DNA of 8,581 nucleotides, taken from the IMG/VR virus record IMGVR_UViG_2740892423_000012; one strand, written 5' to 3'. Of the stretch, positions 1,917 through 8,093 are shown piece by piece. Under the pieces are notes generated by a model, which worked only from the letters and a program-made list of their open reading frames with translations, searched no databases and had not been told where the DNA came from. The first letter of the stretch is position 1. Each line of letters opens with the position of its first letter. The position numbers were made by a program, and so were the translations under genes. This DNA is from a virus. Lineage: Duplodnaviria > Heunggongvirae > Uroviricota > Caudoviricetes.

Positions 1917-3014
1917 TTAGAACTGGTAAACCAGACCTACAGCAACGATGTCATCAGTGCTTACACCGAGTGCTTTAGTGAAGTCATTTTTGTCAAGCAG
2001 GTTGATTTTGTAATCAACGAAAGTAGACATATTTTTGTTGAAGTAATAGGTTGCACCTACATCAACATATTTGACTAAGTCCTGATCGCCCCATACTCCA
2101 AGATCCTTACCTTTAGATTGCAGGTAAGCAACGGACGGACGCAGACCGAAATCGAACTGATATTGTGCAACAGCTTCGAAGTTTTGGGCTTTATTAGCAA
2201 CGAAGTGATCAGCAAATACAGTCATATTCTGGGTTTCAGAATAGGTAGTGGCCAGGTAAATGTTGTTAGCGTCATATTTCAGACCTGCGGCCCAAACTTC
2301 TGCATTTTTACCGGAAGCAAATACTTCAGGAAGAACTTTCCCTGCATTAACTTGAGTGTCGGTACGATCAGATTTCGCATAAGTTGCACCGATACCGAAT
2401 CCTTCGTATTCATAGGTAGCAGAGAAACCGAAGCCATCACCGTTACCTTCAGTGTAGTTATCGAAATCGCTACGATCGTTTTTGCCTTGGTACTGAGCAG
2501 CAAAGTTCAGACCATCAACCAGACCAAAGAAGTCGTTGTTACGATAGGTTGCAACACCAGTTGCACGTTGAGTCATGAACACGTCGGTTTGAGTCCAAGT
2601 GTCACCACCGAATTCTGGCAGGACGTCAGTCCACGCACCGATGTCGTATGCTACACCGTAGTTACGGCCGTAATCGATGGAGCCGTAGTCACCGAATTTC
2701 AGGCCAGCGAAGGCAAGACGGGTTTTATCTTTGGAGGAACCTTGAGATTCAGCGCGGTTGCCTTTGAATTCATATTCCCACTGACCGAAACCAGTCAGTT
2801 GATCGTTGATTTGGGTTTCACCTTTGAAGCCAAGACGGGCATAAGTAGTATCACCATCATCTGCATCATTAGAGGAGAAGTAGTGCTTAGCATTAACTTT
2901 CCCGTACAGATCCAGCTTGTTACTGTCTTTATTATAAATTTCAGCTGCCTGAGCAGACATCGCCATCAGTACTGATGCAGCTACAGCAGAAATTGCCACT
3001 GTTAATTTTTTCAT
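1917..3014 (-). CDS. nmpC: outer-membrane general porin, OmpC/OmpF family (NmpC/Lc-like), 365 aa with signal peptide; intact
   Basis: ATG at 3012-3014 (complement) gives [23 protein letters not shown]|AEIYNK... (cleavable signal peptide) and ends ...VGLVYQF* with the C-terminal Phe typical of beta-barrel porins. The ORF track's 385-aa version begins at an upstream in-frame ATG. No interrupting insertion is present. Confidence 0.9.
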
Positions 3015-3441
3015 CGTGAGCCCTTTTTTTGAACTATTATTAAAAAATGATGTCACTGCGCGATAAATATTCATCTAATCAATGTGATTATTTCAAGATG
3101 TAAGTTTTGGTTTCTCGTTTGATTTGTGAAGTAGATCTCTATTTTTATCTGAACTTTTTTCTATCGAATCCTATTCATGGCTCTTGGCTGAATAAAAATA
3201 AATCTATTAGCCAATTTATATTAACGGCTGTTATTTATAAGTGCTCTATAATTTGAAGGTTCAATTTAAATTGGCTAAAAATAACGCTGGAAATTATTTG
3301 TTGGTTATTTGTTGAGATTTGCTTATGTATTTGTAGTGGTGTTTTCAATACTCGGTAGCATTCTCGCAAATATCATTTAGTGGTTTACGTACGTAAAAAA
3401 TTGGTTATGCTGTTAAGAGTGGTTACTTCGTCACACAGCTT

Positions 3442-4958: not shown

Positions 4959-5480
4959 ATGAATATCGTGCCACTTAATTACAAAGGTGAAATTGTCAGT
5001 TTCAACACTGATGGTTGGATCAACGTCACAGGTGTTGCTGAGAGATTTGGGAAACGCATTGATAACTGGATGCGTTTGGCAGAAACGCTTGAATACGTTC
5101 GTGCTTTAGACGAAGCGTTGACCGGGAAAGAATCTCAAATTTTACATCCCTCACAATCGAGGTATGTAAAAACCAGCAAGGCACGAAAGGACAGGGGTGG
5201 TGGTACGTGGCTACATCCAAAACTTTCAGTTGCATTTGCCCGTTGGTGTGATGCTCGTTTTGCTGTGTGGTGCGATCTGCACATTGATAGTCTGCTTCGC
5301 GGTGAACTGACTGAGCAGCAGAAATATGAGCAAGCATGTCGCATTCGCGATGACCGGAAATCAAAAGCCAGCAATGGGGCAAGAGAGATGGCTCGCTGGC
5401 GATGGGATAAGCCGGTTATTGAAGCAAATGTTGAGTACTGGCGCGAGCAACTGCAGTTGACTCTCGATATCGCGTGCTGA
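4959..5480 (+). CDS. KilA-N domain protein, 173 aa
   Basis: ATG 4959 with a weak SD (AGGT, 7-nt spacing). The segment GGTWLHPKLSVAFARWCDARFAVWCDLHIDSLL matches the conserved core of the KilA-N DNA-binding domain as remembered. The C-terminal third is charged and helical. Confidence 0.7.
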   Translation: MNIVPLNYKGEIVSFNTDGWINVTGVAERFGKRIDNWMRLAETLEYVRALDEALTGKESQILHPSQSRYVKTSKARKDRGGGTWLHPKLSVAFARWCDARFAVWCDLHIDSLLRGELTEQQKYEQACRIRDDRKSKASNGAREMARWRWDKPVIEANVEYWREQLQLTLDIAC

Positions 5481-5697
5481 TGGCAAACGCAAAACTGCGT
5501 TATCGAAAAAATCAAAGCATTACTAGAACTGAGCAACGGCTATCCATTACAAAGCCCATCTACGGGTGGGCTTGATAATGGCTTATACCCTGCACGGGAT
5601 AACTTAACTGATATCCCTTTTAACGGATAAAGGCATTCAAGCCTGACACATCATGCGCTGTATCGTCGCCGTATTCCCGCATTAACCATGACCGTAG

Positions 5698-5949
5698 CCC
5701 GACGGGGAATTCCTTCTGCGTGAGTGTGCGGGAATAATCAAAAACGATGCACACCGAGTTTTTACCGCGTTTATGGTTCGCGGGTTTGTCTCTCATGCTC
5801 CCCGTTCTGCTGCTTGGTTCTTCACGTTACGTGGTTGTCTCCTTTACCCGGAAGATCTGGAGCGCGTCACGCAGATTATTAATGGTGGGAAAAACGGCAT
5901 TAAAGACCGCCGTGAACGTTACGTCAAAGCTAAAGTCGCATTGGTGTGA
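5698..5949 (+). pseudogene. C-terminal remnant of a GH19 (chitinase-like) endolysin
   Basis: Frame-1 translation ...SHAPRSAAWFFTLRGCLLYPEDLERVTQIINGGKNGIKDRRERYVKAKVALV* carries the family-19 IINGG..G motif and a degenerate AWF motif. In-frame stops lie immediately upstream (5689-5697) and no N-terminal catalytic half exists in any frame between 5481 and 5697. Confidence 0.4.
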
Positions 5950-5968
5950 GGTCTATGTGGGAATTGAA

Positions 5969-6247
5969 ATGATTGTCGGCCTGATTGCTGCCTTGCTGGC
6001 AGTAATAGCCGGTGCTTTTGGTCTGGGTAAATCTCGCGGTGCAAGTATCGCTGAGACAAAAGCGAACCAGCAACGCACTAAAGAACGTGCAACTGCTACT
6101 GAAGTCGTTGCAATACGCCGGGTAGAAACAACAAAAGGAGCCTGGGATGTACAGCAGATTGTTAATCATCTTCCTGATGGCGATGTTGACCGTGAGTTGC
6201 GCGAAAGATTTACCCGAAAAAACTGCAGTAACAGACACGGCTTGTGA
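5969..6247 (+). CDS. i-spanin-like protein (N-terminal TMD plus charged helical domain), 92 aa
   Basis: ATG 5969 lies 20 nt after the endolysin-remnant stop. Translation MIVGLIAALLAVIAGAFGLGKSRGASIAETKANQQRTKERATATEVVAIRR.... The 166-aa track ORF from 5747 is an upstream extension through the endolysin remnant in another frame. Confidence 0.5.
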   Translation: MIVGLIAALLAVIAGAFGLGKSRGASIAETKANQQRTKERATATEVVAIRRVETTKGAWDVQQIVNHLPDGDVDRELRERFTRKNCSNRHGL

Positions 6248-6362
6248 CTGGGTGAACATCATCTACCTCACTGAGCACGATATTACCGTGCAGGATAAGC
6301 AGACGAAGCGGGACATATTGGCGCATAACAAATCAGTGCAGGCTAACTGTAGAATGTATTGA
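6147..6362 (+). CDS. o-spanin-like outer-membrane lipoprotein, overlapping the 3' end of the previous gene in the +1 frame and extending beyond it, 71 aa
   Basis: Strong SD AAGGAG at 6135-6140, 6 nt before the ATG. Signal peptide with lipobox MYSRLLIIFLMAMLTVSC; the mature part contains two further Cys residues. The overlapped (P2 LysB/LysC-like) architecture is typical of spanins. Confidence 0.55.
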   Translation: MYSRLLIIFLMAMLTVSCAKDLPEKTAVTDTACDWVNIIYLTEHDITVQDKQTKRDILAHNKSVQANCRMY

Positions 6363-6515
6363 AACTAATACTTTTGTAAGCGAATGTGTGTAAGTGCGAC
6401 ATGGTTGTGTGTTTTATCTAAGAATTGTTTTGCCGTAAAAGAGCATTTTGTGGTTGTAAAAAATGTGGGGAACTCGCTATAGTTCAGCCATAGAAAGCAG
6501 CTTTTCATTTTTTTT

Positions 6516-6536
6516 AAGCCTCATTTGAGGCTTTTT
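6516..6536 (+). terminator. putative rho-independent terminator
   Basis: Stem AAGCCTC/GAGGCTT with loop ATTT, followed by a T-run, and preceded by a T-run. Confidence 0.45.
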
Positions 6537-6561
6537 GCACATTTAGAAATTGAGTAAATGG

Positions 6562-6599
6562 CACATATAGTGTTTTCAGTGTTAAAAAAACACTATATG
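6562..6599. promoter_or_regulatory. perfect 14-bp inverted repeat (operator-like) with overlapping -10-like hexamer
   Basis: ACATATAGTGTTTT (6562-6575), 10-bp spacer, AAAACACTATATGT (6586-6599). TATAGT at 6566-6571 lies inside the left arm. The repeat sits 26 nt upstream of the 66-aa ORF start. Confidence 0.45.
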
Positions 6600-6624
6600 T
6601 AGCACTACAATAGGAGATTCCACT

Positions 6625-6825
6625 ATGAGCCCGGCTGAGTTCTACGATTTCTATGGCATTAAACCTGCAGAGATGATGACTGGAGAAACTGTTAACAACT
6701 TTGCTTCCAGGGTACTTGCTCAACAAACGAGTACGAGTGGTAGTACCGGCGTTTGGTACTCTCAAGGTACTGCAGCGCAGGCTAAGCAAAATCAAAGTAC
6801 ACATCATCAACTTTACACCTACTAA
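6625..6825 (+). CDS. small hypothetical protein (66 aa), first gene of a two-gene operon
   Basis: Good SD AGGAG at 6611-6615, 9 nt before ATG 6625. Translation MSPAEFYDFYGIKPAEMMTGETVNNFASRVLAQQTSTSGSTGVWYSQGTAAQAKQNQSTHHQLYTY. The stop is 5 nt before the next ATG. No family recognised. Confidence 0.55.
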   Translation: MSPAEFYDFYGIKPAEMMTGETVNNFASRVLAQQTSTSGSTGVWYSQGTAAQAKQNQSTHHQLYTY

Positions 6826-6830
6826 ACACC

Positions 6831-7733
6831 ATGCCTAATTGGAGTGACGTACTGGGCGAGATGACGGCTCTCGCCCAGAAGAGTCCGATGGATGAGGTTC
6901 GCCGTAAATATTTATTACAACTGTCTAATCACACTGGAAGAAATGTAATTACATATTATTCCGGATGGTTGCAACATGGTGGTGCAGAAGTCCGACATCT
7001 CACCCTGATGACAGATGATGATAAAAATGGATTAATGACTGTTATTAATGGTTTAGATGTTACAAAGGGGGTGGATTTAATATTACATACCCCTGGAGGT
7101 GATATCGCTGCCTTAGAGTCTATTGGTCATTATCTGCGTTCTAAGTTTGGGACTGATATCAGAGCTATCGTTCCTATGATTTCAATGTCATGTGGTACCA
7201 TGCTTGCGTGCTGTGCTAATGAAATCATAATGGGTAAACAGTCCAATATTGGCCCGATTGACCCTCAGTTTAATGGATTTTCTACACATGCTATTATTGA
7301 GGAATGGAATAGAGCTCAGGCGGAAATTTTTAACAATCCAGCAGCTGTGCAAATGTGGCAGTTTATACTTCAGAAACTCAACCCCACTATTATCGGAGAG
7401 TGTGAAAAAGCTATCCAATGGGCGAATGAGATTGTCAAGCACTGGCTTATGACGGGTATGTTTGCAAATGATCCGGAGTCAGAAACAAAAGCAACTCATG
7501 TATGCTCAGAGCTGAACAATCATCATACAACTTACACTCATTCGAGACATATCCATTTCGATAAAGCTCAGAAAATTGGATTGAATGTTACAGAACTGGA
7601 AAGTGATCAAGTCCTCCAGGATTTGGTTTTGACCATACATCACAGTTACATGCACTCGTTTGGTGGAGCCCCGATCGCAAAGATCATAGAAAACCATAAT
7701 GGGAATGCTATGATTTGGAATATGCAATCGTAA
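6831..7733 (+). CDS. ClpP/SppA-fold serine peptidase (S49 / SDH 'serine dehydrogenase proteinase'-like), 300 aa
   Basis: LILHTPGGD motif (compare ClpP/SppA ...SPGG) followed by ISMSCGTMLA with a candidate nucleophile Ser. The gene is visibly AT-rich relative to its neighbours. There is no SD before ATG 6831 (suggesting coupling to the upstream ORF); alternative in-frame starts exist at 6861 and 6888. Confidence 0.75.
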   Translation: MPNWSDVLGEMTALAQKSPMDEVRRKYLLQLSNHTGRNVITYYSGWLQHGGAEVRHLTLMTDDDKNGLMTVINGLDVTKGVDLILHTPGGDIAALESIGHYLRSKFGTDIRAIVPMISMSCGTMLACCANEIIMGKQSNIGPIDPQFNGFSTHAIIEEWNRAQAEIFNNPAAVQMWQFILQKLNPTIIGECEKAIQWANEIVKHWLMTGMFANDPESETKATHVCSELNNHHTTYTHSRHIHFDKAQKIGLNVTELESDQVLQDLVLTIHHSYMHSFGGAPIAKIIENHNGNAMIWNMQS

Positions 7734-7755
7734 GAACCTATTTACACACCATATT

Positions 7756-7781
7756 AGCCTCGCAGTAGCGGGGCTTTTTTA
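7756..7781 (+). terminator. rho-independent terminator; near-duplicate of the 4786-4810 terminator
   Basis: Stem AGCCTCGC/GCGGGGCT with loop AGTA, followed by TTTTTT. The stem arms are identical to the terminator after Rz. Confidence 0.7.
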
Positions 7782-7904
7782 TGCGCATCGCACGCGCACA
7801 TCAAAGAGAGTCTTTCAGTAATGATTCTGGATATCATAGCTATAAATACAATTGATAGTTATTTTCATTTTGGCGGGTCCTTTCCGGCGATCCGACAGGC
7901 TACG

Positions 7905-8093
7905 GGGCGGAAGGCGCGCGGGTTTTCGCTATTTATGACAATTTTCCGGTTTAAGGCGTTTCCGTTCTTCTTCGCCGTAACCTAATGTTTTTATTTAAAA
8001 CACCCTATGAAAAGAAAGGAAACGACAGGTGCTGAAAACGAGCTTTTTGGCCTCTGTCGTTTCCTTTCTCTGTTTTTGTCCGTGGAATGAACA
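7905..8093 (+). other. cos packaging site: cosN-equivalent 12-mer (7905-7916) plus cosB (terminase small-subunit and IHF binding region)
   Basis: 7917..8093 (CGCGGGTTTTCGCTATTTATGA...GTCCGTGGAATGAACA) closely matches the lambda left-end cosB sequence as I remember it, and ...CGATCCGACAGGCTACG upstream matches the lambda right end. The 12-mer between them is GGGCGGAAGGCG. Confidence 0.65.

Follow-up and report, generated by a model that had tools for sequence, protein, structure and literature searches.

A mobile two-gene cassette of a small partner protein and an SDH-type Clp-fold serine protease in the late region of a lambdoid Escherichia coli prophage

The window analyzed here, the whole 8,581-nucleotide stretch of IMG/VR virus record IMGVR_UViG_2740892423_000012, comprises late genes of a lambdoid prophage of E. 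coli. Between its lysis genes and cos, outside the head gene cluster, an open reading frame (ORF) for a protein of 66 residues (6625-6825) is followed 5 nt later (TAA-ACACC-ATG) by an ORF for a protein of 300 residues (6831-7733), as an earlier note made from the sequence had described. The main new result of this work is that the small protein represents a family of protease partners that is conserved across phyla. The module is best explained as a self-contained two-gene cargo of temperate phages and other mobile DNA, with both proteins made from one message. Its features are the following.

6442-7830, plus strand: mobile block, marking the extent of the cassette as exchanged (aligned by blastn to the locus of E. 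coli YPE10, L002, at about 80% identity)
6454-6483, plus strand: candidate cassette promoter P1 (TTGTAA, 18 nt, TATAGT), sigma-70-like, from a consensus scan
6516-6541, plus strand: terminator-like leader hairpin with T-run, about 30 nt 3' of P1, previously read as an upstream terminator
6563-6600, plus strand: dyad or hairpin of 38 nt with perfect 14-nt arms (6563-6576 and 6587-6600), about 25 nt 5' of the small ORF
6612-6616, plus strand: Shine-Dalgarno-like AGGAG, 8 nt 5' of the small-ORF ATG (AGGAG or GAGG at the same place in variants)
6625-6825, plus strand: small partner protein, 66 residues, with a two-helix N-terminal part and a disordered tail that carries a motif
6831-7733, plus strand: SDH-type (PF01972) ClpP-fold serine protease, 300 residues, with Ser120 as the predicted nucleophile
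7756-7781, plus strand: intrinsic terminator closing the cassette (hairpin 7756-7775 and T-run; eight pairs in the scan, six of them G-C)

The larger protein had been described as an S49/SDH-like serine peptidase, and profile searches place it on the SDH side of that pair. It passes the Pfam threshold for PF01972 (E = 3.7e-22, 79.1 bits against a cut-off of 31.3) and falls short of the NCBIfam equivalog cut-off of NF047768 (92.7 against 250), from which we conclude that it forms a divergent subfamily. No match to PF00574 (CLP_protease) appeared at E ≤ 1, and the scores stayed far below the cut-off for SppA/S49 (TIGR00706, 15.9 bits against 155.45) and below that for NfeD1b_N (25 bits against 40). 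A profile search of PDB sequences revealed no close relative with a solved structure; the only matches were ClpP and the NfeD protease 1510-N, and in both the catalytic serine aligns with Ser120 of the window protein (ISMSCG). Compared with ClpP (MEROPS S14), the window protease has about 130 extra family-specific residues and no linked gene for an AAA+ unfoldase. The family-specific parts comprise an N-terminal helix pair and the C-terminal 110 or so residues with invariant His and Arg. Across 24 homologues Lys136, Asp144, His237, Arg239, His240, His270, His271, and His275 are all invariant. Ser120, Asp144, and His237/His240 are candidates for a Ser-Asp-His triad, next to the equally invariant Lys136; residues 234-237 are modeled at a pLDDT below 50. 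Compared by eye, Lys136 probably stands where ClpP has its histidine.

The N-terminal sequence MPNW..VL.E is kept in 22 of 24 aligned homologues, the other two rows being without that stretch, and the first 20 codons differ from those of the YPE10 copy (81% identical) at five bases, all of them third positions. The start of the 300-residue frame is therefore right, and the shorter PGAP/RefSeq product of 281 residues in EC14 begins 19 codons too late (6831-6887 in the window, 12432-12488 in locus L001). In GenBank the protease is often labeled "S49 family peptidase", and elsewhere "SDH family Clp fold serine proteinase", "serine protease", or "hypothetical protein".

The first of these labels brings to mind a capsid (prohead) maturation protease or a scaffold-protease. 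There is indeed a weak likeness at the level of the superfamily, both to the profile of ClpP-related head maturation proteases NF045542 (E 4.5e-4) and to phrog_53 (E 1.3e-4), and lambda gpC and SppA (S49) have the broad ClpP/crotonase fold in common with the window protease. However, the NF045542 score of 20.2 bits lies far under its cut-off of 120, as does that for TIGR00706 under its own. The gene also lies outside the head cluster, and each of the five E. coli carrier prophages examined has its own head protease of S49 or ClpP type beside the portal gene. The viral structures (BFVD) that most resemble the protease model come from giant viruses (Marseillevirus, Mimivirus, Klosneuvirus, Hyperionvirus) and are named "serine dehydrogenase proteinase"; they align over nearly the full length at a TM score of about 0.6, whereas phage ClpP-like and head proteases reach about 0.3-0.4. 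With these scores, this position and the resident head proteases we effectively rule out a role in head maturation, as the earlier note had also argued; the chance that it applies is negligible.

Relatives of the protease, 48-83% identical to the window protein, were gathered from 80 loci in many bacterial phyla, the candidate phyla radiation (CPR), and Methanosarcinaceae. Identity amounts to 48-57% between the proteins of E. coli, Firmicutes, CPR bacteria, and Methanosarcinaceae, and the relatives from Methanosarcinaceae, Methanimicrococcus, and CPR (Peribacteria, Saccharibacteria; L006, L011, L024, L073, L078) are 49-55% identical to the E. coli protein. Judged from these alignments, the unusually high conservation across domains suggests frequent transfer.

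In almost every one of the 80 loci a same-strand ORF of 50-100 codons adjoins the protease gene. Starting from the 66-residue protein, an iterative profile search over the 9250 ORFs of these loci converged on 43 members, every one of them next to the protease: 31 upstream, 7 downstream, and 5 in the window and its close variants. None of the 43 matches lay away from the protease. A second seed led to a related group of 20, of which three are shared with the first. In the final count of 88 loci, a same-strand small partner assignable to the family was present in 70, from many bacterial phyla and archaea, so that the pairing is conserved well beyond prophages. The partner gene lies upstream in 63 of the 70 cases, where it overlaps the start of the protease gene (27), ends 0-10 nt before it (21), or ends 11-30 nt before it (13). 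These overlaps, together with the 5-nt gap in the window, bear out the proposal that the two genes are translationally coupled. In the seven remaining cases (Lachnospiraceae-type, spirochaete, and similar loci) the partner lies downstream; the two genes have thus changed places in evolution and yet stayed together. The downstream gene begins 25-83 nt 3' of the protease gene in L018, L032, L047, L049, L068, L080, and L082. No third gene is conserved among 495 neighboring ORFs, and Pfam scans of the neighbors found no recurrent AAA+ family. Nor do genes for export or modification go with the pair.

The small ORF itself is coding, since comparison with the YPE10 copy shows more synonymous (22) than non-synonymous (10) codon differences and an excess of base changes at third positions (27 of 41). 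Its gene is left unannotated by PGAP in YPE10 and in many other genomes. The protein matches phrog_25714 and has no Pfam domain. A direct search with it retrieved only nine close enterobacterial clusters; identity falls to 33-53% within Enterobacterales, and beyond this order the relatives are recognizable by profile only. The family profile, run on 1.84 billion proteins, retrieved 314 cluster representatives; almost all of them have 52-90 residues. Relatives that came with source names and precomputed domains, from a separate word-indexed search, were all unnamed, and none carried a Pfam domain. By these sequence comparisons, the 66-residue protein is a member of a fast-evolving family of small protease partners.

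The family pattern consists of an N-terminal helix with hydrophobic-x-x-Tyr/Phe-x-x-Phe/Leu-Gly/Asn-Ile, a second helix with Phe-Ala-x-x-Phe, and the motif hydrophobic-x-Tyr-Ser-x-x-Ser/Thr, which reads V43-W-Y45-S46-Q-G-T49 in the window; its Tyr-Ser is nearly invariant. AlphaFold (AF2) predicts helices at residues 3-10 and 23-37 with a pLDDT of about 85-89 and gives about 50-60 for the rest, residues 38-66 including Tyr45-Ser46 being disordered. The partner has neither a signal peptide nor a membrane-spanning segment, and past the motif its sequence is not conserved, the tails differing in both length and composition.

A conserved short linear motif in a disordered tail beside a dedicated protease could mean that the small protein is an effector or signal precursor, which the protease would cut at the Tyr-Ser site to free an active peptide. 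Cleavage of an operon partner has a precedent in the closest mechanistic analogue that we found, the NfeD-type protease 1510-N and the stomatin PH1511 of Pyrococcus horikoshii (PDB 2deo, 3bpp, 3viv). By the names of these entries 1510-N cleaves the product of its operon neighbor, and it is a ClpP-fold protease whose catalytic serine is the one aligned to Ser120. The likeness ends there: the pair is no NfeD/stomatin system by profile or by partner, the partner here being a soluble protein of about 60 residues without membrane segments that is not of the SPFH/stomatin type, and for the Lys in the Ser-Lys dyad of 1510-N the window protease offers no established counterpart. A precursor-and-maturase pair also sits badly with a partner that lacks a signal peptide, a transmembrane segment, and conserved sequence after the motif, with the lack of export or modification genes alongside, and with the fact that the strongly conserved component is the protease and not the peptide. 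We regard this explanation as quite improbable.

The earlier note had taken the cassette for horizontally acquired prophage cargo, and its distribution supports exchange between prophages. The block 6442-7830 recurs in E. coli YPE10 in a different lambdoid prophage, at the same site between the lysis genes and nu1. A DLP12-like prophage (LWY6) that is otherwise 98% identical to the window is without 5757-7852 and has other genes instead; in the window, this segment replaces the ybcV/ybcW-type genes of the DLP12-like prophage. Because closely related prophages exist without it, the cassette is dispensable; it was found in 80 of 5426 complete E. coli genomes. Variants at 68-74% identity lie directly between the antiterminator gene Q and the holin gene in several unrelated lambdoid prophages, including one of E. 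coli Nissle 1917, and this is the commonest enterobacterial site of the pair. A Klebsiella copy is surrounded by prophage genes. In Proteus mirabilis (L092-L094), three prophages with differing tail modules, at more than one chromosomal site, carry the pair after the tail-fiber genes, and a gene for DNA polymerase III theta (HOT-like) precedes it. Three classic moron sites are thus in use: Q-to-lysis, lysis-to-cos, and post-tail-fiber. With the morons of lambdoid phages (bor, lom, stx, the nmpC-type porin) the cassette shares these sites, a promoter-like site and a terminator of its own that make it an independent unit, a lower GC content, and presence in some relatives only; it differs from them in that its cargo is a cytoplasmic protease pair instead of a surface protein or toxin. 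The AT-richness seen at first sight is confirmed by a GC content of 0.411 against 0.477 for 4959-6362, 0.496 for the lysis genes, and 0.537 for nu1.

Phage genomes carry the protease rarely (7 of 50,697 records), and none of the seven phages is clearly virulent. Five are Porphyromonas prophages with the pair beside HicAB, one is a Mu-like Shewanella phage with the pair between the late activator gene C and the lysis genes, and one is Gordonia phage BeeGee, where the protease gene lies a few kilobases upstream of the integrase gene. In one Porphyromonas phage (L089, 3855-5882) the pair and a 112-residue upstream ORF follow HicA/HicB directly, and both units are inserted between head and neck genes. 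The pair is also widespread in cellular genomes, archaea included, with no phage genes nearby. Its neighbors there are very diverse and include integrases, methyltransferases, type I restriction-modification subunits, BREX BrxL, AbiP2/DRT, type ISP, and MvaI enzymes. These neighborhoods point to mobile or defense-associated DNA, without settling the matter.

The site in the window fits this pattern. The gene order is RusA, a Q-like antiterminator, a porin gene of nmpC/ompC type on the opposite strand, holin, endolysin, an Rz-type spanin, a KilA-N protein, a second spanin pair behind an endolysin fragment, the cassette, a lambda-like cos, and the start of nu1/nohD. The cassette therefore stands 3' of one complete lysis cassette and the remnant of a second, and 5' of cos and nu1/nohD. 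The features outside the mobile block that matter here are the following.

1917-3074, minus strand: OmpC/NmpC-type porin gene, between the Q-like antiterminator and holin genes
5654-6362: remnant of a second lysis cassette, just 5' of the two-gene module
about 7903-7916: presumed lambda-like cos, assigned by likeness to the lambda sequence
8008-8075: strong hairpin between cos and the nu1 start
8094: start of nu1/nohD

The porin gene is a known moron of the DLP12 type. In the remnant, the endolysin fragment (a partial GH19 endolysin in the annotation of EC14, whose prophage is identical) is followed by an overlapping spanin pair made up of the C-terminal part of ORF 5747-6247 (phrog_1026) and ORF 6147-6362 (phrog_1275), the latter with a lipobox-like LTVSC. 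The hairpin at 8008-8075 gave sub-threshold matches to several miRNA precursor models; going by the lambda sequence, we take it to be the lambda cos/nu1 leader region.

The cassette brings its own predicted control elements. P1 has -35 and -10 elements that are recognizable in most of 11 aligned variants and clearest in about seven, in the form TTGTNA, 18 nt, TATAGT, and the spacers share a CTGTGGnTAA-like motif. In the Nissle and CK450 variants the equivalent site scores 10 of 12. The arrangement of P1 followed by a hairpin is also seen at equivalent sites in L002-L005, L051, L084-L086, L090, and L092. The hairpin itself (6516-6534 and T5; -10.1 kcal/mol, z -3.97), which a consensus terminator scan missed, has a stem that is 100% paired in nine variants, with four of seven pairs changed on both sides. 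In the earlier note it was one of two terminators insulating the cassette. For the 3' side this is clear: the downstream terminator (-15.6 kcal/mol, z -4.3) is conserved in YPE10 and in mEp-/HK639-type phages and is annotated as a terminator in HK639. The 5' hairpin is just as real, but a conserved P1 lies 5' of it inside the mobile block, which makes it a leader element and not a mere insulator. It would either terminate or attenuate transcription close to the promoter or mark where a short RNA of about 45-50 nt ends. Eight T residues 5' of the hairpin mean that it could also terminate transcription on the other strand. We considered whether P1 and the hairpin might be the late promoter pR' and terminator tR' of the phage. 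This was ruled out by the prophages of Nissle and CK450. Their cassette stands behind Q, and directly after Q, 5' of P1, they have another promoter-like site and terminator; P1 and its hairpin therefore belong to the cassette. A promoter-proximal terminator is not a universal feature of the pair either, since it is present in nine of nine enterobacterial-type cassettes and elsewhere near the control rate (about 14% against 11%; over all loci, 18 of 75). The leader is restricted to the enterobacterial and pseudomonad lineage, and no Rfam family matches it, the only hits being sub-threshold, hairpin-like miRNA matches.

Within this leader, the inverted repeat that had been called operator-like is real. 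Its 14-nt arms are 100% complementary (-17.2 kcal/mol, z -5.3), and it is kept with compensatory changes in nine enterobacterial and pseudomonad variants, the arms co-varying as ACATATAGT/ACTATATGT, CTACATCT/AGATGTAG, and CTACATGT/ACATGTAG. Over the alignment 85% of the cells are paired, and the observed covariation score was reached by none of 500 shuffles. Whether it is an operator is a separate matter. Several G-U cells are tolerated, and a stem formed in RNA, here in the 5' untranslated region, is therefore no less likely than an operator bound by protein; the element could be either.

A conserved dyad between promoter and start codon, a small first gene, and stop and start codons that overlap or abut resemble the layout of a type II toxin-antitoxin (TA) module. 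On this account the protease would be a toxin and the partner a labile antitoxin, possibly acting as autorepressor at the dyad, and the pair would stabilize a prophage or island by addiction rather than defend it. The variable genomic context without a third gene, the vicinity of HicAB in Porphyromonas phages, and a cross-phylum spread that suggests frequent transfer would all suit such a module. Yet searches of Pfam, NCBIfam, PHROGs, and PADLOC link neither protein to a TA family, the predicted partner of two short helices and a disordered tail contains no recognizable DNA-binding domain, and the G-U cells suit a stem in RNA no less than an operator. A TA function and defense are, moreover, not mutually exclusive. 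As an explanation in its own right we consider an addiction module unlikely.

The position of the cassette in the late region allows another reading, in which the pair is a lytic-cycle accessory of the carrier phage. It would be expressed late through Q antitermination, and its protease would process or destroy, to the advantage of the carrier, a phage protein or a host protein, for example one of defense or stress. Q-modified polymerase reads through terminators. The window copy still lies inside the late transcription unit, before cos and nu1; directly between Q and holin is the commonest enterobacterial site, and the Mu-like Shewanella phage also has the pair between its late activator and lysis genes. 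Against this stand the conserved promoter-like site and terminator of the cassette's own, its absence from closely related prophages, the small number of phage records, none clearly virulent, and the many cellular genomes and archaea that carry the pair far from phage genes. A role confined to the lytic cycle therefore also appears unlikely to us.

The earlier note knew of no described system with this composition. That statement has to be withdrawn, since DefenseFinder lists a system named FS_HP_SDH_sah with a gene SDH_sah, a name that occurs in a passage of PMC13532340. Judged by composition and Pfam domain, the cassette fits this entry: a hypothetical protein goes together with a PF01972-domain protein, and the window protease passes the Pfam threshold for that domain. 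We take HP to stand for hypothetical protein and SDH_sah to be the former Pfam short name of PF01972. The FS systems are said to come from a 2022 study by Fillol-Salom et al. (Cell 185:3248), in which accessory genes of phage-inducible chromosomal islands (PICIs) were reportedly cloned and shown to restrict phages. To our knowledge, no mechanism has been published for FS_HP_SDH_sah. The copies described here differ in that they lie in lambdoid prophages, whereas the FS system is reportedly PICI-borne. Literature searches for PF01972, for the names of SDH-family Clp-fold and serine dehydrogenase proteinases, and for ClpP-like anti-phage proteins found nothing relevant. The Tai system (PMC11364771), considered as a matching PICI defense, was rejected because that paper has no protease or SDH content.

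The reading that we favor, and to which we give about an even chance, is that of a partner-gated protease for phage exclusion or abortive infection. Co-translation of the two proteins, a constrained protease next to a fast-evolving partner, a docking element with a motif-bearing tail, and the lack of any other component make a protease inhibited by its partner the simplest model. The cassette's own promoter-like site and terminator, its low GC content, its several prophage sites, and its occurrence in only 80 of the E. coli genomes speak for cargo of this kind, as do the vicinity of HicAB in Porphyromonas phages and some neighbors elsewhere (integrase, restriction-modification, BrxL, and AbiP2/DRT genes). 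For the protease itself, 1510-N with its cleaved operon neighbor is a precedent here too. We infer a complex, an inhibition, a trigger, a target, and an anti-phage phenotype of the window copy along the following lines. Partner and protease would form a complex, in which the partner docks by its N-terminal helical hairpin and places the disordered Tyr-Ser tail in the substrate groove, where the tail would act as a pseudo-substrate or be cleaved at a slow rate. The bound partner would keep the protease idle. An infecting phage would then remove or out-compete the partner, either because a phage protein binds it or because resupply of a labile partner stops. The freed protease might cleave a host or phage protein that is required for phage production, and the population of lysogens would be protected through exclusion or abortive infection.

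Several observations weigh against this proposal. The identity with FS_HP_SDH_sah is presumed from composition and the Pfam domain, and PADLOC-DB v2 has no match to either protein. A PICI context was sought for the enterobacterial homologues, and every copy inspected lay in a prophage. In cellular genomes defense genes are a minority of the neighbors, many of which are housekeeping genes. Most enterobacterial copies lie just after Q, so that strong expression is to be expected in the late phase of the carrier phage as well, in keeping with a lytic-cycle role. For Ser120 there are two candidate sets of catalytic partners (Lys136, or Asp144 with His237/His240). Finally, no natural fusion of partner and protease was found, the long matches being repeat proteins.

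A broader alternative is that the partner family is distinct from the listed HP. The pair would then be an unrecognized, near-universal protease switch of bacteria, archaea, and temperate phages, worked by a Tyr-Ser pseudo-substrate tail, placed in enterobacteria under the control of a promoter-proximal terminator and a co-varying leader hairpin, and representing a new TA-like or abortive-infection class with a proteolytic effector. We consider this less likely than not.

What is new, then, is the cross-phylum partner family and the structured leader, while the module itself is of a listed defense type, here in a prophage-borne member. Current annotation hides it, because it truncates the protease and often misses the small gene, and the label "S49 family peptidase" invites confusion with head proteases. 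Testable handles are offered by Ser120, by Tyr45-Ser46 of the partner, by the natural permutations of gene order, and by the structured leader. If the partner-gated protease is the right reading, the cassette would be a compact native anti-phage module based on a protease, whose promoter, leader, gene pair, and terminator fit into 1.4 kb. The partner, which evolves much faster than the protease, is a candidate for the specificity or sensor element, and the protease, still about 50% identical when E. coli, CPR bacteria, and methanogens are compared, seems to have an activity that is under strong constraint and passes easily from host to host.

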